Assembly: GCF_052425735.1 (NCBI RefSeq) | Contig: NC_135770.1 | Span: 29,698,001-29,762,000, forward strand | Source of the DNA: Oculina patagonica | Taxonomy: Eukaryota | DNA: 64,000 nt | Direction: 5' to 3' | Shown: positions 44,301 through 58,867 of the stretch, one piece after another | Position numbering within the stretch: the first letter of the stretch is position 1 | How the letters are laid out: each line of letters opens with the position of its first letter | The notes under the pieces: generated by a model | Seen by the model: the letters and a program-made list of their open reading frames with translations, nothing else | What the model was told of the DNA's origin: nothing | Databases searched by the model: none | Program-made: the position numbers and the translations under genes

Positions 44301-46047
44301 ATTTATCTATCTACTTATTTATTCAGTTAGTGTATTGGTGAAATAACACGACCAAAGCTTCAAACCTTTTATTATTGTCATGACTATCGAAATTATCAGG
44401 ATTGATCAGTTAGACAACAGTGATGAGGTTCGAAATCAATTGGTCCTTCCGATAGTCACCATACAATCGCGAGTAATTAAATCAATTTGGATTAGTGACG
44501 TAGTCAGTGACGCTATTAATTATAATTCACATAATATCGATTAATATTTAAACGATACAGTTAGTTAGTTTGCTAAATAGCGTATTTTAACAAAAACGTT
44601 CATTGATACACACACATGTACCTTGAAGATCATTTAGGCAGCTCTTCAGTTAATCGTTGGAACAGCGAACAAGGTTACCTAAGTTGTTCAGGTAACTGGA
44701 TTTACCTGAGAAAATGCCGCTGAGGTTTTGGTATTTTTTTTTATTTTGCAGGTATCACAGCGTTGTCCCTTGTGTACACTCTTCAACTTGCATTAGATAC
44801 GTCAAATTACGGCGTCAGACAGTGTTCAGAGGTCGAAAATTACATGACGTCAGTTGAACGTGTCATCACATATACTCACATTGAGCAAGAACCTGGGTAC
44901 GAGAATCTATCTCAACCTCCAGAAACCTGGCCAGAGAACGGTCAAGTGACAGTAAAGAACCTGGGTCTAGTCTACTACCAGGGTGGACCAGAAATACTTA
45001 AAGATGTCAGTTTTACCATTGATGCTCACGAGAAAATTGGAATTGTTGGTCGCACAGGCGCTGGCAAGTCGTCTTTGGTTTCAGCTCTCTTTCGCATGCC
45101 TCAGCCATCTGGCGATGTCATAATTGATGATGTTATTATCAGTGATATAAACATTCAAAGCTCTCGTCGAGTAATGTCAGTTATTTCCCAAGATCCAGTT
45201 CTGTTTACCGGTTCACTGCGCATGAACTTGGATCCTTTTGAGGAGCACGAAGACAAGGAACTCTGGGATGCATTAGAAGAAGCAAGTTTGAAGACCATGG
45301 TGAAAAAGTTATCACAAGAACTGAGTGAGGAGATTAAAGAATGCGGGGCAAACTTCAGCGTCGGTGAAAGACAACTTCTGTGTCTGGCTCGCGCCTTACT
45401 GAAGAAATCCAAGATCATTGTTATGGATGAAGCAACAGCAAATGTCGATTACAAAACAGATCGGTTAATTCAAGAAAAAATTCGCACAAAATTTGAGCAT
45501 TGCACCGTGATTACAATTGCACATCGATTGAACACAATCATCGATTACGATCGAGTTTTGGTTCTGGAAAATGGGCAAGTTGTCGAATACGACAAACCAG
45601 AAAATTTATTACAAAACAAAGGAGGACAGTTTTCGAGACTTTACCATGGCTATGATAAAGATATAGATTAGAATATTGGTTCAGAAAAATGTATGACAAT
45701 AAATATCGTGACAAGGTTCCTTCGTGTGAAGACGATTTGATTACGTTTCAGTTGAAGACATTGAATTTTCTAAAAAAATCAGTCGGGATGGGAAGAAGGT
45801 TCGGCGCGATGGAAAGAAAGATCAGCGGGACAAAGGAACAAGCTCTGTGTGTTATGTGACTTCTCCTAGGAATTTTTTTTTGCTGTAGCAGACCCTGGTT
45901 TCCAGGAACTCTCAAGAAGGGTGTTTTTTCTTCTTCTTTTCTAATGGAGGACTAAACAAACTAAACAGCCCTGTAGTTAAAATGGTTAAGAATGAAATTG
46001 TCTTTCCGAACCCTTCCCATGTGAGCTGCCAATGGAAATACGTCTAA

Positions 46048-46260
46048 GGGCGCTTTCCATTTTGTCAGAACTGGCCGGCCGGTCCGGTGGTTTTGAATGT
46101 GAAATGGGCCTTTTGTACGGATTTTTCCCACAAATCCATTATAACAGTGTATAATATTTAGGCTGATTGAATGATTTGTCAGACAAATCTGACTAACAAT
46201 GGAATTCTGTTCTCGAATACACCGGTCTGGCCGGCCAGTTCTGACGAATGGAAAGCGCCC
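46048..46260. mobile_element. PIF/Harbinger-type MITE with TAA target duplication
   Basis: TIRs GGGCGCTTTCCATT..GTCAGAACTGGCCGGCC / GGCCGGCCAGTTCTGAC..AATGGAAAGCGCCC; TAA on both flanks. Confidence 0.85.
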
Positions 46261-48842
46261 TAAGTGTTCATCAGAGAATGTTGAGATCGATGCAGGATTT
46301 CAATGTCAGTTTAAATAATTGCCGTCAAAAACCAGCTGCCGTTCGCTTGATGCAAACTCGTTTGCAAAATGACTCGCTTCATGTGTAGGACCAGGATGAA
46401 GAAAAAAATCACATTTCCCTTTTGGTTACACGTACAATTTTAAAAATAGGAAAAACTGAATAAATACATTTTCATGACTGATATTCTGTTTATTAATCGG
46501 GGATTCGTTCAGTTCAGGCTGCGTCTACTATTGACGGCTTACACTTGAGTGTTGTCAAATCACTGCAAATAGTGATCCTAGTATTGGTTCTTGAAGGTTA
46601 CAGCAAATGAACAAAGCGAAAATTAAAGGAGAAGTTCACTCCAGAATGGCCATTTATTTTCTTTCGGGTTCGGTAAGTTTGATTGAGATTCTACGAAGTC
46701 ATTCGTCGGGGTCTTCCGGATTGTTTATTTTCGCCATGATGAAAGTTTTAACGTGCAACTACACCAAAGTTCGCTTGCAAGTGACTGCTCTGGTTTCCCG
46801 TGCATATCTCCCGTGACTCCTTAGCGACATTTACCAATGACGAAGTAGAATCGAACTCACGATAAAATTTGGTCAATCGAACAAAATAAAACGTTCGATT
46901 ACCGAACGGTTGATAATCGTACTCAATCGAACGTTCGATTACAGAACTGTTTGTTTGATTTTGATTTTTAGATATTACACTGATTAAAACAAAGTTCTGA
47001 AAACGTGCCTAAATGTTATCAAACTTGTGTATATTTTGCGGATATTTTGTACGGCATACGTCCCCCTTATCTTTTGTTAGGGTAATCATTGTCAAATCTG
47101 CACAATAACCACGTTTTCGGTGGAAATTGTGAAGGTTTAATTACTGCTAGTTTTCAGTGAACCCGAAAAGAAATGTCGAGAGCGTCAAGTACCCGAAGCG
47201 ATATTCAGGAGACCCAGCAGGAGACTGCATGTATCGAAATTACATGTGCTGTAAAAGGATATCAAGAATGCTGTTTTAGTGTTGATGTGAGAGAAGCGTT
47301 TCGCATTTTTAAGAAGATCGGTTCTAAAGAAAGAGCGTTCAAAGTGACTACAGCAAAAACCCGCTTATAAGAACTAAGATTTTCTAATTAGACTTAATAT
47401 GTTCTTATAGAAGTGGTATTTTTTAGTGGGATTTTAGGCTACTTAGGTTCTTAAATAGGTGCTGAATTTGATAGGGGCACTAGTATTCAGCACAGATAAC
47501 TACTACAGGGCATAATAATTATGTGATAAATAATATATATTTCTGTATTCAATAATTATCTAAAATACAGTTTGAAAGATAATGTTCTTTCAGCCACCAA
47601 ATTGCACAACATTTAAAAACTAATGTGTTACGTTCATCAAGTTCGCTATGCCTCATTGATTTAAAATTAGCAAAAGGTTATTTTCGAGACCCCGTGCGTG
47701 GCCATTTTTGTGGTTTGTAAATCGTGAAAAACCGCTGTGTGAATCGCGATTGAAGTATACCGAAAGTATCGTGAAAACGAAGTTATTTGTTCCATCATTC
47801 GTCAAATATGCAAATTAGTTTTACCTCCTTTTACCACCACTGAGTAGATAATAATGTCTTTCTGATTATGAATGATATCGAAGAAGAAATCACGATTCAA
47901 TCAGGGACGAATCAGATTGCGCGGTGGTCTGGGTATTTGTAAAACAATAAAAATGCAAGCAAGATAGAAATTCCCTTTTGATATTTATTCGTGTGTTACA
48001 ATTGCGTAAAAAGTACTTTTAATGTTAGAAGTTATGTGTTGGGTCGTTCAAGTATAAAATTGAAATATTTTATGTGCTTAGGACATAAAATTGTACTGAC
48101 TTGTTTCCTAGAGTTAACCGATCAAATGTTATATTCTCTTACACGTATCATTGTACACACATGTTGCGTTTTTCCTAGAAATCAATTCTTCAATGATATA
48201 GGAAATTGAGCATTTTAACTTAACTATTTTTAAATGGAACTTATAAACCGATTTCTCGGTAAAATTGGATTCATTATACTTCTTAGCATTGTTGTTGCTA
48301 AGGCATATTTTCTTTTTCCAGCTGCGTTAGCTACGAAATTTGTTTACATACACACGGTTGTCGTTGGCAATTATAACAAGATAAAAATTGAAAACCACTT
48401 TTTGAAAGCGCTCCTTTCAGAAAAAAGTTGCTTTGGACCCTACTTCATACTAATAAATTTTTGTGTGATTTTTCTGTCAAACTTTACTCGTTTTATTGAC
48501 TTTTTGCGGATGTTTTAGTCGCAATGTTCAATAGCTTATGTATTTCTTTCACACTTCGCACAAACGTACAAAATCAAGCATTGATGCTTTATGAGATATG
48601 TTTGTACCCCGTACTCGTACGTTTAATGATATGGATAACTCTGTACTGGAAACCACTCCCACGTAACTGGGATTTCGCAACCTATTTCTTGAAACACCTA
48701 TGTCGTTTGAAAATTTCATCAACAACCTTTACTGTAAATCTTAGCACAACTCTTAAGTTTTATTCCGTAAATATGTTCTTTGTAAATTTTATATTGATTC
48801 TGCTATCTTATTTAGATCTAACATATTTCTTACAGTAGAAAA

Positions 48843-49281
48843 ATTGGCCGTTTTTATGCTAGAGACGTTAAAGCTGTCTTAGACGTTAAAGCTGTCTCAA
48901 GACGACATTAACGTCTAGTATAAAAACGGTAAATAAGACAGACGCCTTTAACGTCTGATGGCTTTAACGTCTTTTCGTAAGAGCGTCTGAACGACGCTCT
49001 TATCGGACAGCTTTAACGTCTCAGACGTTAAAGCCGTCTAGTATAAAAACGGGACGTCGTTAACTAGTATGAAAACAGTAAATAAGACAGACGCCTTAAA
49101 CGTCTGATGGCTTTACGTCTTCGTGTCCAGTGTCCTCCGAGTGTCGAACCCAGTCTTCTTTTTATTTTTTTCTGAAAAGCTGTCTACTAAAGGCGTCCCG
49201 TTTTTATACCAGACGCCTTTAACGTCTTAGACGTTAAAGTCGTCTGACGACATTATCGTCTCTAGCATAAAAACAGCCATT
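48843..49281. mobile_element. MITE built from AGACGTTAAAG/CTTTAACGTCT repeats, just upstream of ABCC copy 2
   Basis: TIRs TGGCCGTTTTTATGCTAGAGACG / CGTCTCTAGCATAAAAACAGCCA with many internal repeats in both orientations. Confidence 0.8.
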
Positions 49282-49613
49282 TAGGAAAGAAAAGATCTCT
49301 TACAAGTAAATTTTTCGAAGGTGCATGCTTAATTATGCTAGTTTGGCATTTTTAAAAGCTGATTGACAGCTCGAGTCTGATCCATATAAAAGAGCGCGCG
49401 CCAAATCTTATCTTCTGAGTAGTAATAGTCAGGATCTAAAGTGATCGTCATGTAGCTGTGGAGCCTAAAAATAAAGCAAGTTGGAACGGTAGCTGTGATT
49501 GAGTGTTGAAGTTGAGGGTATCAATCCCCCAAAACCTTTCTTCAACAAACCTTTTTAAAAAACTTAAATGAGTTTCTTTTCATTTCAGATTTCTCTAATT
49601 TCAGAAAAGGTCA

Positions 49614-52600
49614 ATGGCTGCAGAGTATAATCGTCTAGAGTCAAAAACCAAACAAAATCCCAAGAAAAACGCTAACATCTTTTCCATTCTTTCATTCTCT
49701 TGGGTGGGAGAGCTTCTTTCCATCGGGAACAAGCGTCCTCTAGAAACTGACGATCTATTTCCTTTACCTGACGAGGACAAAACCGCACCGTCAACGGAAA
49801 AAGTACAATGTACATGGAGTGAAGAAAGACGTGTTCCTGGAAAAAGGGGAAATGGACATCGACTGTTCAGAGCGCTCATTGCAATGTTCCCCTGGACTGA
49901 TTACATGTTCGTTTTGAGTACAACGTTGTTAGATGGCATTGGCAATTTTCTCCAGCTGGTGTTTTTGAGTTTGTTGTTACCGGAATTAATGAAATCTTCC
50001 AATAAAGAGCTGGAATGGACGTATATATTCGCTGGCGGTATCTGCCTGAGTTCTTCCGTGCGATTTCTTGCTAGACACCATCTCGCTTATAATGCTTATT
50101 TGATGGCGCTAAGATGGAAGTCAGCAACAATTGGGATCATATACAAAAAGGTATCGTAGATCGTAGTTGTTGTTCAGCGGGAGGCGCAGTGGCCTAATGG
50201 TTAGCCCATTGGACTCCGGATTTAGCGGTCCCGGGCCCCGTTGGCCGGTGTCATTGCATTGTGACCTTGGGCTACGCAAGTTGCTCTGATAGTGCCCCTC
50301 TTCATCTAGAAGTATAAATGAGCATCGGAGAATTTTTAGGGCAACTTGATAAAAAAAGATATATGTTATTTGCCGGCCGGGAGGTCCGTATAGGGACCTT
50401 TCCTTTCTTTTTTCTTGCGTTGTTTAAAACTTGTCTATTGTTTAGACTTGTGACTTTATGGACAAAGAACGCTAATTAGTGCCCCGCGCAAGATAAGTGT
50501 GATTTTTTCGCTTTGTTTTAACAGTAATTAATTGAGCTATTTTAACAAAAGGAATAAACAACATTAGGGGCGCTTTCCATTCGACCAAAACTTCTGGTTT
50601 GAGTTTCCAGAAAATTCCAGTGCAAATGGAACAGCATTTTCCAACTTTTCCGGTTGACTGCACGGAAGGCAAAAAACATTTGCATATGGTCAGGTAGTGC
50701 GTCTAATATGGAAATTTCTTCGGTGCATTAAAATAATGCACTGTGGCCGGTTTCGCAAATAAAAAGCATTCCGAGCACTGAAAATAAACTCCGTGAATGA
50801 CATCGTGGCCGCAAATACAGGGACCTTTCAAAAGGCACACTACAAGCAACGAAAAGGTCGCCAACCCAAAAAGTTTAATGAGCGATAATGAGCGTAGCCT
50901 GCACGCACGTTATAAACATTTGTACATTTCTTTGCTGCCGCCTGCAAAACAACAACGAAAAGCAACCGAGTTCACCTAAATTTTTTATGCTTTTTCCAAA
51001 ATTTCCGGAAAAGTGGTCAACCTCGCAAGGTAGACCCAAATTTTCGAAAACAATTTCCGGGAACTTTCAGTTCCATTTGATTTTGCTTCTGGAATTTCCG
51101 GGGTTTTCGGTTGAATGGTTCGCATTTCGGAAAGTCAACACTTTCCGGATTTTCTGGAAACTTTCCCAGGAAATTTCTGTACCATTCGTCCTTGTTCCGA
51201 AATTACCGGAATTTTTGGTCGAATGGAAAGCGCCCCAGCATTACCCCAATCAAATGACCGGTATTTCGATCCTTCTTGAGTAAGTGTCTACTTATAAAAA
51301 CCCACTCAGAACAATTCTCATCATTCGTTCATGTTCGTTCATGGAAACTACTAAGGAAAATTTAAGCAATGCTCTATGCAATTCAGACATATGATCAGAA
51401 TAAAATTAGCGTTTCTTCTCTACACGAGTCGTAGGTAGTATGTCAAACATTAGAAGTCTTTACTTAAGTTAGGGGGCGACTGAACTTATTTGGGGGCGAC
51501 GTAACTTCAGTTTTCGGGCGACGTGACCTGAAATGGGGCGACGTTACTTGGAGTGACCGTGCAATGGGGCGACATGACCTACATCCGGGAAAAACTGTAC
51601 CCAGGGTCTTGAGGCCGTAGGCCGAGGGCCGTGCTCAAGACCGAGGGTACACTTTTTTCCCATACAGGTCAACCTAGGCCGGCAAATAACGTCTTTATTT
51701 TTTTTTCCTACTTAAATATGTTATGTAAAGAAATTTAGAAAGTTTGTGTCAAAAACTCTATGTGTGTTTAGGCGCGCATTCAATTTCGATGTTGAGTTGA
51801 TCGACAGGTTTATCGAATAGTGATTTCAACTTAAAGCACTGAACGACCCATCCACCTACCTGTCTCAGTTAACAGTAACCGAATACTTTGTTTACAGTCG
51901 TATAGCTAAATCTATACTCTTTACAACTATTTTAATTGAAAGTAAATAATGATCCGATTATTTTTCCACCCACTGAGCACTATACTTTCTATCAATTTCC
52001 TTGGTAGGTTCTTAGTCTGAGCCAAGCGGATCTATCAAGGATCACAAGTGGATACATCATCAACCTCATCGCCAGTGACCTACAACGCTTTGAACATTCT
52101 GTTTCTTGCATTTTTCTGCCAATTCAAGCCCTCTTTGAAACAAGTGGCGTGTCGTTTTTTATGGTTTACTTATTTGGATGGAGACCTTTATTGGGAGTAG
52201 CTTTTATGATCTTCCTTTCCCTGTATTACGGTGGAATGGCTAAAGTGTGTATGATCTTACGATCACAAATCTCTATGGTGACTGACAAGCGCGTCAATAT
52301 AATGAACTCTGTTATCCCTGGGATTCGTACCGTTAAAATGTACGCTTGGGAGTGGCCGTTCATCAAAAGAGTGAAACGACTACGAAGGTATGTAAACGAA
52401 ATTAAAATCTCCATAATAACCTCAGGACTTCAGGACTTGGGGCCACCGCGAGGAAACTATTATACCAGAAAAATTATATCTAGTAAAGCCTTTTACCAGT
52501 ATGTGGCTTTTAGCTCTCGGCGCGAATTCTGTAGCATGAAACGGATAGAAGTGTTGCTACTAGCCACCCCCCCCCCCCTAAATGGGATGATAGTCGATAG

Positions 52601-54062
52601 CGGGGACCCAGTTATAAAAGTGGGTGGAACGAGGAAGGGTAAGAGAAAAGAGTCTTGACCTATTGCAAGAACAGTAAACAATGCCCCGGCGAGAGTTCGA
52701 AACCAGCCCGCTCGATCAAGAGGCCAGTCCTATAACCATTAGGCCACCGGGCCTACCACATTAGACCTTATATATGGTAATGTCATATGTTCTAAATTCA
52801 CCACCAGGCCTCGTTTACGCAAATTATTCTCAACCTCTGCCACCTTCCTGCAGTTTTCAGGTGGGTATAAGGGAAATCCTTGCTGATGTCATTGTTTCCG
52901 TTTTGCCTCTTTAGCATGCAACTTTGCGTAGAGAAGACATCACGCTATATAGCAATTCACTCTAGATATGTTTTAATACTCGGCGAAATTTTCAGCTCTT
53001 TGCTTTCAATGTTCCAGGAGATATTAACTTCCAAAACTGCAAAATTTCTGGCTGGCAAAAGCGCTAATCGAGCCTATACATTCTTTGTGAAACTTTTAGT
53101 TTTAAAACTCCTATCACACGGGCTCAAATATATAGTGAAAGGTAATCGCGCAATGTTTTTTCAATATTCAGAATTAAAAGTTTTGTAGCTCGATTAGAAA
53201 ATGAAGCGTTTATACCGATGAAAGAAATATTGTAAACAAGGATTCTCCTATTCTTTTCATTTTTGCCGAATTGGTAATTTAATAGTAGCCCCCGCAGGGT
53301 TTGGTCCAGAGGCCACTTGCTCTCTTCCTTTTACAAAGTCTCGAAGACCGCGAAATTTGTCCAGAAACGAGTACGAAGATATCAACAAGTTTTTTCGCGA
53401 TTAACGATAAGCAAGAGTCAGTCCAATGCCGCCATTTGCCAGGCACAATCTACTTGAACGAAAAAAGTCTCGATCAGTCCACATCCGGACGAGATTTACT
53501 AGACAACATGTGGCATCAAGGGGATGTAATTCAAAATAGATCTCGAGACAATTATTAAAGACCCGCGGCAGGCTTTTGCATTGACATAGGTGAAAAATTC
53601 TTTCGGCATCCTTTCGACTCAGCTGTAAATCAAAGTTGATAATTCTTGCTTGGGAACTCAGCCCAAATATATTGGGCGCAATTGGTATTTTAAAACATTT
53701 TTCTGTTGCTCGCTGAGAACACTCATTACAGAAAAACACGGCAAAATGACGTCAAGCTGTTGCAATTAATTAAATTGACGTTATCATTAATCTTTCAGAT
53801 TTTTTTGCACAATTTCGCTTTTTTGTGATCACTTGGCTTTAACATTTCATTTTAAATCGTACGGACCCCTCGTTCCATCTTGAAGAAGAGAAGGCCAGAA
53901 TTAGAAGACACAAGCCGCCAGGGAGTGTTTTCATCTTCAAAAACATCCTAAACAGAAAATTGACTTCCAATCAATTTAGTAGATAGAGTCTAGATAAAAG
54001 AGGCAAGACACCAAGCGAAAGAATTGACCGTAGTAAGAGATGTGCTGAAAAAACAAAACAAC

Positions 54063-54093
<31 letters not shown>

Positions 54094-55691
54094 AAACCAG
54101 CGGGGGCAGCTGTAGTGTCAACTATTTCTAGTTTACGATAGGATTTACAAGTTTGCCAGGCCACTGGCTAGAGGGCCACTGGTTTTTCAGTTTTTAACTG
54201 TTACGTGTTCACCCTCTTTAAATAAAGTTGATTATTTTTATAATTATTACTTCGAACGCGAGGCTTTGTGGTGAAAATAGCCAGTCTGACGTAAACAGAA
54301 TAAATTAAGTTTAGCGGCTAACTGAATAACAGTTGTTATGTGAGCAAGTTATTCCTTATGGCAGTATTTGTTTTCTTTCAGCCTAGAATTGAAATTGACT
54401 CGATGGAAAACAGCAATATTGGCTTCTTTCCAATCTCTTCTTCACACTTCTCCATCAATTGCTGCTTTTATTTCTTTCGTTTCACTGTTATCCTCGGGAA
54501 CTGAACTCACTTCATATAACACGTTCATGATTTTATCCCTAACCACTACTATGAAGGTTTCTGTTTCCTGGCATCTATCTTTTTCAGGAAACATTCTTGC
54601 CGACTTTGCAACAGCTCTGACTCGTATTCAGGATATACTTGAATTTAAGAGTGATGACAACATCCACAAATACCCTCACGATACTTTTGCTGAAAATAAC
54701 TGCGCTGAACTGAAAGGAAATAAGTTTCCTTTTAATTCCAAGGATGAGAAATTTCAACTTTGCAGCAAAGTAAACGCTAATGACGTCCACGTTGGAGAGG
54801 ATCCATGTATTGTACTAGAAAATGTTGTCTGCAGTTGGCATGGTGATTGGAACAAACCAACACTGAAGTCTCTGTGTTTATCGGTTTCTGCAGGCCATTT
54901 AGTGTTCATCACAGGTCCCGTTGGTTGTGGCAAGTCATCCCTACTGTACGCTATCTTGCATGAAATTCCACTCTTGAAGGGAGAAATATCATGTCCTGGT
55001 AAAGTTTCTTGGGTTGGTCAGCAGCCCTGGGTATTCTCTGGTACCATACGGGAAAACATTTTGTTTGGTGAGCCGTTTGATCCGCAGAGATATCATGCGA
55101 TATTACATGCCTGTGACCTGCAGACAGACTTGCAAAGGTTCTCGGATGCAGACATGACACTAGTTGGAGAACGTGGAATAGTTTTAAGTGGTGGTCAGCG
55201 CACTCGTGTTGGACTAGCACGCGCTTTGTATTCTGATGCCGATATCTATCTTTTTGATGATCCATTAAGCGTCCTGGATACAAAAGTCGGATGTCACATT
55301 TTCAAAACCTGTATCACTGGTATACTGCGGAAAAAGACACGACTGGTGGCCACTCACAACTTGGAAATCCTCAGGGATGCTGACAACATAGTAGTAATGA
55401 AGGGAGGATCCAGTTTAGAGAAAGTCGATTATGACGGGCTCATTAAGTCTGGCTTTAAACTTGCTGCTTTGGAGGAGCCAAAAATTGATGGAAGAGGCTT
55501 TTCTTCCGAAAGATCATCAGCACAAGAAGAGTCAGCGATGATCTCAGACACAAAATACGCCAGACTAGAACCTGCTGAAGAAGATCGTATGATAGGTTCT
55601 GTGTCCTGGAAGCTGTACTTGGACTACATACTTGCTGGAATGCGTACAACTTCAGTTGTGGCTTTTGTGATGTTTTTCCTCGTCGTTCAAG
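49614..55691 (+). CDS. ABCC4/MRP4-like ABC transporter copy 2, first three coding exons (49614-50150, 52008-52387, 54382-55691); rest expected beyond Polinton 2
   Basis: Paralogous to copy 1 with identical splice positions; open frame; NBD1 motifs GPVGCGKS, LSGGQ and IYLFDD. Confidence 0.88.
50365..51690. mobile_element. Nested non-autonomous DNA transposons in ABCC copy 2 intron 1 (inner Harbinger MITE 50567-51236)
   Basis: Outer arms GTTATTTGCCGGCC / GGCCGGCAAATAAC. Inner TIRs GGGGCGCTTTCCATTCGACCAAAA / TTTTGGTCGAATGGAAAGCGCCCC. GGGCGAC repeat cluster at 51471-51585. Confidence 0.75.
52520..52754 (-). mobile_element. tRNA-derived SINE
   Basis: Minus strand GGTGGCCTAATGGTTA (A box) and GGTTTCGAACTC (B box); same head family as 32243. 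Confidence 0.6.
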
Positions 55692-55724
55692 GTAAGTCTT
55701 ATGTACCTAGCAACGTTAAGCAAC

Positions 55725-56538
55725 CGGTCAGTGTAAAACGCAGACTGCGGACTGCAGACTGCAGACTGCAGACCGGGGGTAAAATGCAGACTGCAGACTG
55801 CAGACTGCAGACCAAGGGTAAAATGCAGACCGAGGGTAAAGTAACGAAATACGAGTCACAAAGCCATTTTTCCCCGCCGGCTCCAAATTTCGAAGGAATG
55901 TATGTCAGACAACGTTTCCCCCCGTTTCCCATGAGCGATCACGAAAATGAACTAGATTTAATGCTGACACAAATTTGATCAAATTTAACTTTTTGATACA
56001 GCAAAGGCATTTTAAAGATTTTTGTGAAACTTAAACTTCAGTTTACAATTAATCTTCTACGTTTGTAAACCGGATGAAACTGAACGGTTTACAGATGTCA
56101 CAGATCATTTAGAAGAATAAATTTTTTACTTGCCGACACAGCAGGATCACGTTTACAGCGATCATATTATTCTGCGGCCACAGCTCTTTCAAGTGTTTTT
56201 AAGTGGCACAGATTAAACCCTTCCGCAGTTAAGTTATAAAAAAACGGCTTTGCTTCGCTAACCGTCGTAATAAAACACCATAAAAATAAAAGGTACAAAA
56301 CTTTTATGTTTAGCGAGGCCGGTAAACAAATGATGTGTCGACGGACGTAGTGCGAGCGCGTTTAAAATTAATTTCCGAAAAAGGCCGCGCTGAAAGGGCT
56401 GTAAACAGTTCAGTTTCATCCGGTTTACAGATGCAGAAGACTTGAAGTTGAAGGTTTAGTCTAACAGCGTTAAGTCTGTAAAAAAAAAAGAAAAATTTGA
56501 ACACATTTGTGTCGGCATAAAATTTATTTATCGCCAGC
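55725..56538. mobile_element. Repeat element starting with an ACTGCAG microsatellite; the insertion site of Polinton 2
   Basis: (ACTGCAG)n array at 55740-55830; internal inverted repeat TGTAAACCGGATGAAACTGAAC (~56064) / GTTCAGTTTCATCCGGTTTACA (~56408). Confidence 0.55.
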
Positions 56539-56716
56539 AGTAGTAAAGGGGGGGTCTCACAAATACCACCTGAGAAGTAGTCGCTTTTTTCACAGGCGGT
56601 ATTTGTTTACACAACTCTTTTTACCAATAAAAACTTAAAAAATCGCCCTTTCTTCTCGAAGCGCCAAAAGCCGCGAGCGGCTGAATGTCAATTGAACAAT
56701 TGTGATTACTAAGTAC

Positions 56717-57124
56717 ATGGCTTACAGCGAGACCTCGTCAGCCGCGAACAAAGCAAGACAGTTTGATTCGAACGAGTGTTCTTTGATTTGTTTATGTGAA
56801 AGTGAATGTTTTTGTCTTCCAAAACAAAAGTCTATCAAGGATGTGAAAAAGAAATATCTTTCGATTGACGGAAAGACATTTAAAAAATCAGCAAGCGTCT
56901 GGTCCTTAAAAGATTATAAATGCGAAGCTTGCGACAAAACGTTTACACAATGCCACTCGCTTCGATCCCATGAAAGGTATCATTGTAAAAAACGAGAAAC
57001 ACAAAAAACACCAAAAGAAAAATGCCTTAAATGTGGTAAAATGCTTCATATATCGACCGTTTACAGACACAAAAAAAATGGTTGCCCTGCTAGCGGCACG
57101 CAAAATCGCGAGCGGCTTACGTGA
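56717..57124 (+). CDS. Small C2H2/C2HC zinc-finger protein
   Basis: YKCEACDKTFTQCHSLRSHERYH and CLKCGKMLHISTVYRHKKNGC; ATG context is homologous to the PolB start of element 1. Confidence 0.75.
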   Translation: MAYSETSSAANKARQFDSNECSLICLCESECFCLPKQKSIKDVKKKYLSIDGKTFKKSASVWSLKDYKCEACDKTFTQCHSLRSHERYHCKKRETQKTPKEKCLKCGKMLHISTVYRHKKNGCPASGTQNRERLT

Positions 57125-57702
57125 GTTGCGTGACATTTTCAGAGAGAGTCTGGAAACCATATTTCTAGTTCTCAGGCCCTTGGACGAGCAGAAAGAAACA
57201 TGGCGGCCTAATCAGGATTCAGTGTTTGGGCCGATAAAAAACGAAACAGAACAGATATTACAAAAAAAATACGCTCAGTTAACGCGCTGTAATTTTTTGT
57301 GCCCCCACAGAAGCTGGCGAAGTGAAGCGAAGAGAAGAAATCGAGAAATAACAGGATTTGATCACAGAAGTTTATCGATCGATCGAAAGAACTTTCCCGA
57401 AACATCGGACTCAATCGGGCCTGTTTATTTTTTTTCCGCTTCAAGCATTGCATCCACGACTTGATATGTTATCTGTCTGACCTCATTTTGCCAAACGGGA
57501 GTAGAAAGTTCGGTTAAAATAAAGCAAATCGCTTGGAAAAGCACCATCATTTTAGCCTATTTACCAAACTTTACCAAGTGTCTAATTAATGATGACATCA
57601 TCCTGATGCCCAAAAGCGCATGCGCACTTGCTCAAATATTGCAAAATTTAGGTGAATGACATGGAAAAGGGTACCACAAGTGAAAAATGTGACAAAGTGA
57701 AC

Positions 57703-57740
57703 TATATATAAGTTAACGCGGCCGTAACTTTTTGTTAGTT
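57703..57740 (+). promoter_or_regulatory. TATA box plus initiator-like element
   Basis: TATATATAA at 57703-57711; TTAGTT at 57735-57740, about 30 nt downstream; GCGCATGCGC palindrome upstream at ~57616. Confidence 0.55.
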
Positions 57741-58045
57741 CACAAATTCTGGTGAAGTCAAGGGAGGTAGTGGATGGCCAACCACTTGAATCCTGTTATA
57801 ATGGCTTGTGCGGATGGTGAATTACGGGGTATAGGGGGACTCCTTTCAGTGGGAGATACCCCTGGGTGAACCCGCCTCGGCCCTACTGATAACGTGGGGG
57901 TGCTCAGAAATTCCTCGGGATTTCAAACCTCGGCAGAGGTAAAAATGCGGGACAGCCGCCTTGTCAGCGGCGGGGAAAAAGTCCTAGCCGGGGCTAGGCA
58001 AGAAACAGCCAACGAGCACCCCCCGACCAGGGTTTTGCCCTTTCG
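57737..58045 (+). ncRNA. Candidate structured non-coding RNA (~300 nt) of Polinton 2
   Basis: At least nine nested helices found by eye, G-U pairs and A-rich linkers favouring the + strand, upstream TATA/Inr, and no credible ORF. Confidence 0.6.
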
Positions 58046-58052
58046 TTTGACC

Positions 58053-58140
58053 TGTCACGCAACGTCACGCGTGACTGTCACGCTCTGTGTCACACAATGT
58101 CACGTTGTGTGTAACACAATGTCACGATTTGTGTCATGCG
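58053..58140 (+). repeat. Phased array of eight TGTCAC-like motifs
   Basis: Motif starts at 58053, 58063, 58076, 58088, 58098, 58110, 58120 and 58132 (spacing 10-13 bp). Confidence 0.8.
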
Positions 58141-58180
58141 TTAATTTTATTTTTCTGAACACTCAGATTAAATCCAGTGT

Positions 58181-58867
58181 TTATTTTCTCAAATCTGATT
58201 TCGACTCGGCTGATATTCTTTTTTTTAACCTATCTAATTCTTGTTGTCGAATTTCCTCTCTCAGTTTCTCAATGTCAGGCTGTGGGGATGACTTTTTTTG
58301 GCTTAAATTTTTTGAAAGGTGCCTGCGAACAGTCTCTTTGAGAGCCATGTAACGAGAATATTCATCCAAAATAATTTGGAACTCTTTGTCATCAACTTTA
58401 TTGTCAATGAGTGCGGCAGAAACAAGTCTATTGACTGTTTCACGTTTGGCAACAGCAAGCGAAGTAATTTCATTATTTTTCAAAATTTTTGGTTCAAGTT
58501 TTTTACTTGCTCCAGTGAAAGCGGCAGACAAAACGCCTGTAATGGCAGCACATGCAGCGAGAGGAACGCTTACCGGCAAACCAACGACCGTTACCGCGGT
58601 GCCAAGACTGGAAGCAGAGAGAACACTGGACAAACCACCCATTGAAATTGCGGAATAATGGAAAACAGACTTCACCTTTTTATACTTTTTCAAAACAGCT
58701 CGGTATTTAGCAACTTCTTTGTCAAAATCCGAACAAATTTGATTGATTTTTGTTAACCTAAAGTTTTCTGGTTGATTTGGCAAAGCAGGATACAGTGTTT
58801 GTTTTACGCTGTTTTCTTCGCTTACACCATAAGCAGGGGCACTCGGAAGAACATTAGCAGATGACAT
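58181..58867 (-). CDS. Polinton membrane protein with hydrophobic hairpin and PSAP/LYPxL motifs
   Basis: 228 aa; central Gly/Ala/Ser-rich double hydrophobic segment; DNKVDDKEF EF-hand-like motif; N-terminal PSAP and LYPAL. Confidence 0.8.
   Translation of the reverse strand: MSSANVLPSAPAYGVSEENSVKQTLYPALPNQPENFRLTKINQICSDFDKEVAKYRAVLKKYKKVKSVFHYSAISMGGLSSVLSASSLGTAVTVVGLPVSVPLAACAAITGVLSAAFTGASKKLEPKILKNNEITSLAVAKRETVNRLVSAALIDNKVDDKEFQIILDEYSRYMALKETVRRHLSKNLSQKKSSPQPDIEKLREEIRQQELDRLKKRISAESKSDLRK

Follow-up and report, generated by a model that had tools for sequence, protein, structure and literature searches.

A probable structured RNA gene with a U6-like upstream region in Polintons of Oculina patagonica

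Polintons have so far been viewed as protein-only elements. Adenoviruses are linear dsDNA viruses related to them, and herpesviruses are unrelated. Type 3 genes of RNA polymerase III (Pol III) produce U6, 7SK and RNase P/MRP RNA and, among plants, ciliates and Hymenoptera, also telomerase RNA. Binding of host proteins by viral Pol III RNAs is well documented (PMC8223928, PMC6599070). The VA RNAs are transcribed from a type 2 promoter (PMC8223928); VA RNA contains a pseudoknot, and VA-I requires a 22-bp apical stem (PMC6599070). EBER1/2 of EBV and the TMERs of MHV68 are also Pol III RNAs that bind host proteins, the EBERs in latency (PMC8223928). Type 6 IRESs combine nested pseudoknots with a terminal pseudoknot ahead of an ORF (PMC10516663, PMC13273307, PMC12221177). 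Work on cellular RNAs describes a template and box H/ACA domains in cnidarian telomerase RNAs (PMC8480181), a repeated GAUC motif in the human 7SK 5' hairpin (PMC2954905) and a poorly known 7SK in basal animals (PMC2655684). No report of a structured RNA gene in Polintons or adintoviruses was found in the literature at the level of listings, most subscription journals being outside the scope. A look-up of terms found no mention in the coral polintovirus paper (PMC11131425), and none of non-coding or VA-type RNA in the adintovirus paper (PMC8502044).

The window analysed here is a stretch of 64,000 nucleotides (G000:C13:29698001-29762000) from the 529 Mb genome of Oculina patagonica. The initial annotation, made from the letters of the sequence, placed a candidate RNA gene inside a Polinton. 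This setting was confirmed: the element measures 15.8 kb between its 216-bp terminal repeats, and this size, within the 15-20 kb of Polintons and adintoviruses, its terminal inverted repeats and the kind of its ORFs are those expected of such elements. By reading of their translations, the ORFs between the repeats appear to encode a capsid protein, a packaging ATPase, an integrase and a protein-primed polymerase; a Pfam scan of eight window ORFs gave nothing significant. Roughly 1 kb inward of the left terminal repeat, the RNA gene is oriented toward a membrane-protein gene, which we take to be GasderminX-like, a putative label based on resemblance to a description in PMC8502044. The coordinates of all features are collected in Table 1. 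The GTCACG/CGTGAC repeats downstream of the RNA form a possible protein-binding array. A zinc-finger ORF (56717-57124) and the polymerase ORF (L113:5230-9126) start within the terminal repeats and have their first residues in common. The Polinton is flanked by exons (44844-55978) of a gene labelled ABC-transporter-like from its translations, with similar ones beyond the right end of the element.

Table 1. Position of the RNA gene, its predicted parts and its surroundings in the window
Feature	Position	Strand	Basis or remark
Left terminal inverted repeat of Polinton, 216 bp, begins AGTAGT	56539-56754		100% identical to other end at G000:C13 ~29770304
Cassette common to Polinton lineages with differing neighbour genes	57074-58185	+	Similarity limits in 29 other copies
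Distal element, DSE-like, GCGCATGCG	57616-57624	+	Identical motif upstream of host U6 genes
Proximal sequence element (PSE), GTACCACAAGTGA; CCACAAG from -63 (57674)	57671-57683	+	Host U6 -63 rule
TATA box	57703-57712	+	Found in 33/33 homologs with upstream sequence
Predicted RNA, 300 nt	57737-58036	+	5' end predicted from U6 spacing, 3' end predicted at first T4
Domain 1	57755-57807	+	P1 57755-60/57802-07, P2 57762-65/57791-94, P3 57769-73/57782-86
Domain 2	57826-57878	+	Closing helix 57826-30/57874-78, two arms
Shared pseudoknot strand	57879-57884	+	GGCC 57879-82 for PK1, CCCU 57881-84 for PK2, overlapping
Domain 3, junction of four hairpins	57896-58023	+	Closing helix 57896-905/58014-23; 95-100% canonical, two-sided change in every helix
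Domain 3 hairpins	B1 57907-24, B2 57927-40, B3 57955-71, B4 57983-98	+	Covariation
PK3, H-type	57933-57948	+	B2 loop GCA 57933-35/UGC 57946-48 past A-rich linker; 97% canonical
PK4	57952-58031	+	B3 loop CUUGUC 57960-65/tail GAC 58025-27 and AGG 58029-31; 95-97% canonical
T4 then T3, likely Pol III terminator	58033-58043	+	At least T4 directly after tail in 35/35
Conserved GTCACG repeats downstream of RNA	58053-58141	+	Present after terminator in most homologs
Convergent membrane-protein gene	58181-58867	-	Homolog faces RNA in 35/35 metagenome hits

The genome holds about 100 copies of the RNA gene. In a DNA search, 40 of 108 candidates were scored, and all of these were at least 95% identical. 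The pattern of hairpin B4 gave 102 genome matches against 5 for the control, and 97 of the 100 matches listed were the B4 hairpin. Positions 57750-57899 are invariant in 29 close copies while the adjoining genes differ strongly, although this invariance is partly a matter of choice, the copies having been selected for likeness to the window stretch. Among 29 other copies, similarity starts at 57055-57121 and ends between 58185 and 59650, and in L003 and L018 it extends further left. RNA domains were also shuffled between lineages (L085, L087, L088). All copies with surroundings that were read, a part of the roughly 100, lie in Polinton sequence.

Homologs occur in related Polintons. Diverged RNAs were found in three of 20 own-genome regions around diverged membrane genes, and these led to further ones. 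Metagenomes were scanned with an alignment of the membrane protein, and among the best 80 of 165 loci, 35 held an RNA homolog (E 1e-7 to 1e-71); the proportion was 27 of 50 for loci having at least 600 nt beyond the membrane gene. The alignment used below, A6, contains 35 sequences. Twelve come from the own genome, and 23 are metagenome hits, left from the 35 after omission of nine fragments and three near-duplicates. Its full-length members are 60-99% identical to the window copy. One homolog (L157:1854-2140) has an additional hairpin between B3 and B4, and its 5' part is missing. In prokaryote genomes, 12 of 14 pattern matches were non-homologous and two were true homologs. The bins of both also contain Polinton capsid genes, and host contamination with animal Polinton sequence is the most likely origin of these two homologs in bacterial bins (L238, L245, L252-L255 loci). 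No relative appeared in IMG/VR, either by protein scans or by sequence patterns, and no further homolog in 22 cassette-less Polinton loci, L144, L146, U6 or U2. A loose GGTGAA pattern was discarded as a homolog probe (395 matches against 276 in the control, near background).

The neighbouring core genes are identical in kind whether an element has the RNA or not, and in elements without it the slot is occupied by assorted small ORFs. The RNA gene is accessory, as many sister elements do without it. Among the elements compared, no partner gene tracking its presence was found.

The upstream region follows the design of host U6 genes. These carry GCATGCG, then CCACA(A/T)G at -63, then a TATA box, and counting from -63 hits the first base of U6 in six of eight host U6 loci. 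The candidate shares the three elements, which places +1 at A57737. In the homologs, GCATGC occurs at -93 to -119 in 30 of 35. The PSE lies at -61 to -64 in 30 of 35, two others lacking upstream sequence, and a TATA box at -29 to -34 in all 33 for which this region is available; for most metagenome homologs +1 was itself set from the PSE, which leaves the TATA spacing and the aligned 5' ends as the independent evidence. At the other end, a run of at least four T follows the fold in all 35 aligned copies, and one of at least five T within 20 nt in 18. With upstream elements arranged as in host U6 and a T-run behind the fold of every aligned copy, the candidate is likely a type 3 (U6-type) Pol III gene. 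Host U2 has a PSE-like element and no TATA box, while the candidate has one. This agrees with the selection of Pol III by TATA at such promoters (PMC6004067). Of the TATA box and Inr-like TTAGTT initially described, the former holds, but TTAGTT marks the start predicted from U6 spacing, and the promoter consists of PSE and TATA. The predicted RNAs of full-length homologs measure 262-304 nt. The 3' end of the window RNA is uncertain, since its terminator is weak (first T5 only at ~58150) and internal T4 runs, which could halt Pol III early, occur in 16 of the 35 copies; internal T5 occurs in none.

As in adenovirus VA RNA I/II, a small structured non-coding RNA gene of a linear dsDNA virus lineage ends in a T-run and includes pseudoknots. 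Unlike VA genes with their internal type 2 promoter, the Polinton gene has an external PSE and TATA box; a B box was found in 0 of 35 homologs and an A box in 2 of 35, the VA patterns, like the IRES, ribozyme, telomerase and 7SK patterns used below, being consensus forms. EBER and TMER genes likewise have type 2 promoters, and the Polinton RNA matches them neither in sequence nor in fold. Its DSE-PSE-TATA layout is shared with U6 of its own genome, yet in contrast to host type 3 RNAs it has no Rfam match, telomere template or GAUC repeat, and among the copies read it occurs in Polintons only.

The U6-type promoter pattern has 1018 matches genome-wide against 0 in the control (e.g., L121-L140, L079, L118). 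The listed ones fall mostly into repeat families whose promoter is aimed at a short-palindrome end followed by A's; these are putative Helentron/DINE-1 ends. Two host loci have the same promoter. At L146 (G000:C13 ~25686500, - strand), DSE, PSE and TATA precede a 75-nt GC-rich stem with a T6 end and no meaningful Rfam match, a candidate unclassified small Pol III RNA. At L144 (G000:C11 ~20675600, - strand), a unit of ~115 nt with pairing ends and a T5 end has no Rfam match and looks, by eye only, Y- or vault-like. Close to their 5' end, the host U6 genes L105-L107 contain a small insertion (length 109 nt, model 105 positions), and the U2 snRNA genes L232-L237 (G000:C1:45938000-45948300, C1187) form a tandem array with a period of 2005 bp.

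The predicted RNA region is a GC-rich block, as initially reported, with a GC content of 0.55 over 57737-58036 against 0.41 upstream and 0.44 downstream. Its folding energy compared with shuffles is modest: z = -1.86 (+) and -0.72 (-) for 57750-58040, and -2.75 (+) and -1.31 (-) for 57737-58036. The + strand folded better than the - strand in all ten homologs tested (z+ -1.44 to -3.25), and it is on the + strand alone that many positions switch between G-U and G-C or A-U pairs. The comparative evidence is strong. When motif anchors were used to position the helices, 2253 of 2325 cells were canonical, and 29 of the 65 proposed pairs, each at least 85% canonical, change on both sides, against 70 of 3924 cross-helix column pairs (1.8%) in the control and 0-2 for slid partners; the helices were picked by eye before the count, clades share changes and some two-sided changes come from single sequences, and such counts are not p-values. 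An independent tool working on plain alignment columns found covariation in 18 of 41 pairs (96.7% canonical); shuffles did as well in 0 of 500 cases on four of five measures and in 96 of 500 on the fifth.

The predicted fold consists of three domains and three or four pseudoknots, two of them having competing partners. All motifs listed in the initial annotation were located where it had placed them, and its helices of domains 1 and 3, including the closing helix and four hairpins of the latter, are kept across homologs. In domain 1, P1, P2 and P3 are 99%, 89% and 99% canonical, with two-sided changes in 4/5, 2/4 and 4/4 pairs; P2 had been missed, and the apical loop contains GGCC (57776-79). 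Domain 2 required more revision. Its helix GGGGU 57826-30/GCCUC 57874-78 is kept in 37 of 37 sequences (182/185 cells); one arm, GGGG 57834-37/CCCC 57859-62, bears the top hairpin. The register first proposed (GCGG/CCGC, GGGGUAU/AUACCCC) is an alternative fold open to most non-divergent copies; it fails in L245 and in the divergent clade, whose six sequences have a strongly reduced domain 2. The symmetric GGUGAA/GGUGAA internal loop is unconserved, and its second copy belongs to the second arm, the hairpin GGG-UGAA-CCC at 57864-73 (88/93 cells canonical). The final AGGG/CCCT hairpin was also abandoned, as none of its pairs changes on both sides and the 3' arm frequently consists of T-runs alone. 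Overall, 90 alignment positions are near-invariant, unpaired A runs among them, and the A-rich linkers are conserved.

A pseudoknot of AGGG with CCCU had been proposed; three others (PK1, PK3, PK4) had been missed. The proposed one, PK2, joins CCCU 57881-84 to AGGG 57833-36 and is 97% canonical with two-sided change in one of four pairs. It holds in the 29 non-divergent sequences (97%; U-A in 20, A-U in 7) but has no counterpart in the six divergent ones. PK1, between the domain 1 loop and GGCC 57879-82, is 98% canonical and nearly invariant, and shows no covariation. All three pairs of PK3 change on both sides, and it is longer in many homologs. The tail strands of PK4 are 97% and 95% canonical with no two-sided change, and the B3 loop has a competing partner, the flank ACA 57952-54 (99% canonical, two-sided change in 2/3 pairs). 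The overlap of PK1 and PK2, together with the complementarity of the B3 loop to both tail and 5' flank, suggests a switch or pairing between molecules.

The ORF at 57945-58352 is broken or absent in several copies and unconserved in homologs, which favours a non-coding RNA as initially supposed. No Rfam family, including RNase P, MRP, SRP, ribozymes and IRESs, matched the RNA, the limit being E 5 for the window and E 10 for nine homolog loci. ARAGORN predicted no tRNA or tmRNA gene in the window. No long complementarity of the RNA to the element, U2 or U6 was found (best 12 nt, E 0.23). Likeness to a group I intron, the HCV IRES or the RNase P P4 element was rejected because the words in question vary among homologs. 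A 9-nt word of the telomerase TTAGGG template occurs in 0 of 35 homologs and a 7-nt part in 4 of 35; ACA lies three bases before the end in only 7 of 35, and the two-hairpin layout of box H/ACA RNAs was not found. By the features tested, the RNA falls outside VA RNA, type 6 IRES, telomerase RNA and 7SK.

Sequencing data were available from 22 runs, one recorded as RNA (X16); seven were compared, as assembled contigs only. X16 contains one 363-nt contig at 57726-58090 with empty flanks. It was not accepted as a discrete transcript, because intronic repeats and further pieces of Polintons are present in the run at an equal depth of 3-5. In X14, a contig at 57798-58084 reaches depth 50, against 3-4 for its flanks; X14 may be a DNA run, however, and higher conservation could explain the difference. 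In X15, 57744-58065 is without cover, a gap that was given no weight.

Since homologs exist, the helices covary, the ORF frame is unconserved and the signal lies on the + strand, the locus is interpreted as a dedicated structured non-coding RNA gene of Polintons, which is very probably real. As for its role, the RNA may act as an abundant decoy for a host protein, comparable to VA and EBER RNAs, a reading given a probability of roughly 40%. It draws on the analogy with these RNAs, the Polinton RNA being accessory, compact and driven by a host-type promoter. SNAPc and TBP would recruit host Pol III at -63/-30, and transcription would begin at A57737 and end in the T-runs, giving a stable, uncapped RNA of 260-300 nt ending in U. 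PK4 would tuck in the 3' end, stabilising and protecting the RNA. A promoter of host type would permit RNA from integrated, otherwise silent copies. The target might be a host antiviral or RNA-silencing factor, with the swapped, variable 5' domains as a possible host interface and domain 3 as the core. The longest predicted helix, 7-11 bp in seven of seven homologs tested, counts against a VA-like decoy, as VA has an apical stem of at least 20 bp on a tetrastem. The Polinton RNA is also about twice as long and has three or four pseudoknots.

Another, unlikely reading is a ribosome-binding mimic: lacking a frame, the IRES-like fold would bind 80S ribosomes, trap them or tune translation. The order of elements resembles the type 6 (IGR) IRES of dicistroviruses (PMC10516663): the apical loop of a 5' stem with internal loops is predicted to pair past a nested domain (PK1), and a predicted pseudoknot (PK4) stands at the 3' end. 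The conserved A-rich linkers would fit as well. However, no conserved frame follows PK4 in 37 sequences (median 29 codons, differing in frame between clades). Known ribosome-contact motifs are absent too: no SLIV/SLV-like loops were seen, and UGAUC, the L1.1a motif, occurs in 1 of 35. The Rfam results point the same way, the RNA is larger (260-300 nt, whereas type 6 IRESs span 123-215 nt), and it has a four-armed 3' domain and its own promoter and terminator, in contrast to these IRESs.

The competing pairings could also belong to a new ribozyme or a two-state switch, in which the B3 loop and the GGCCCU strand each alternate between two partners. A compact fold with several pseudoknots, the overlap of PK1 and PK2, the complementarity of both B3 loop partners across clades (flank 99%, tail 95-97%) and the 90 near-invariant positions with their unpaired A runs speak for it. 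Nevertheless, G- and C-runs can produce chance registers, the divergent clade has no PK2, no Rfam ribozyme matched and CUGANGA is found in only 3 of 35, and this reading is improbable.

Similarly improbable is a host Pol III RNA that the Polinton captured, from a family undescribed in cnidarians, e.g., a 7SK-like one, and that would steer host transcription. 7SK and MRP RNA are similar in size to the Polinton RNA, its promoter is of host type, and other unclassified host RNAs with the same promoter exist (L144, L146). In basal animals, RNAs of this type are difficult to detect (PMC2655684). But every copy with surroundings read is in Polinton sequence, two GAUC motifs occur in only 1 of 35 homologs, and Rfam returned no 7SK, RNase P, MRP or SRP match.

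A virion or packaging RNA was considered quite unlikely. In this scheme, either the GGCC loop, which is self-complementary, or the B3 loop would pair copies with each other, in a ring like that of phi29 pRNA, for use by the packaging ATPase or the capsid. The palindromic GGCC is nearly invariant, the loop-flank pairing seems strained within one molecule, and in L011 the cassette adjoins the ATPase gene. On the other hand, about half or more of the sister elements with identical capsid-module genes have no RNA, and we know of no RNA in the packaging motor class of Polintons. Least probable of all is a cis structure acting without a transcript, as an ssDNA or read-through RNA signal (replication, barrier or terminator of the convergent gene), for although the fold keeps its place close to the left end, turned toward the membrane gene, and the RNA-recorded run X16 shows a DNA-like background at depth 3-5, G-U alternation is confined to the + strand and the fold is enclosed exactly between a promoter of its own and a T-run.

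In our judgement the Polinton RNA is a new family among viral Pol III non-coding RNAs, with a differing promoter type and an unrelated fold. A bolder version, in which the first Polinton RNA gene also founds a new eukaryotic class of multi-pseudoknot RNAs, a two-state machine (ribosome trap, ribozyme or self-assembling ring) driven by a host promoter, traded among coral Polintons as a cassette and expressed from about 100 integrated copies, is doubtful. Few new eukaryotic RNA folds combine three or four covarying pseudoknots; the present one is short, has definite limits and is easily testable. The rule of a PSE at -63 followed by TATA also points to further unclassified small RNAs in this genome. 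Through a conserved RNA gene with a U6-type promoter, Polintons would possess a counterpart to adenovirus VA RNA of separate origin, and integrated copies might act in the host even while their capsid genes are silent.
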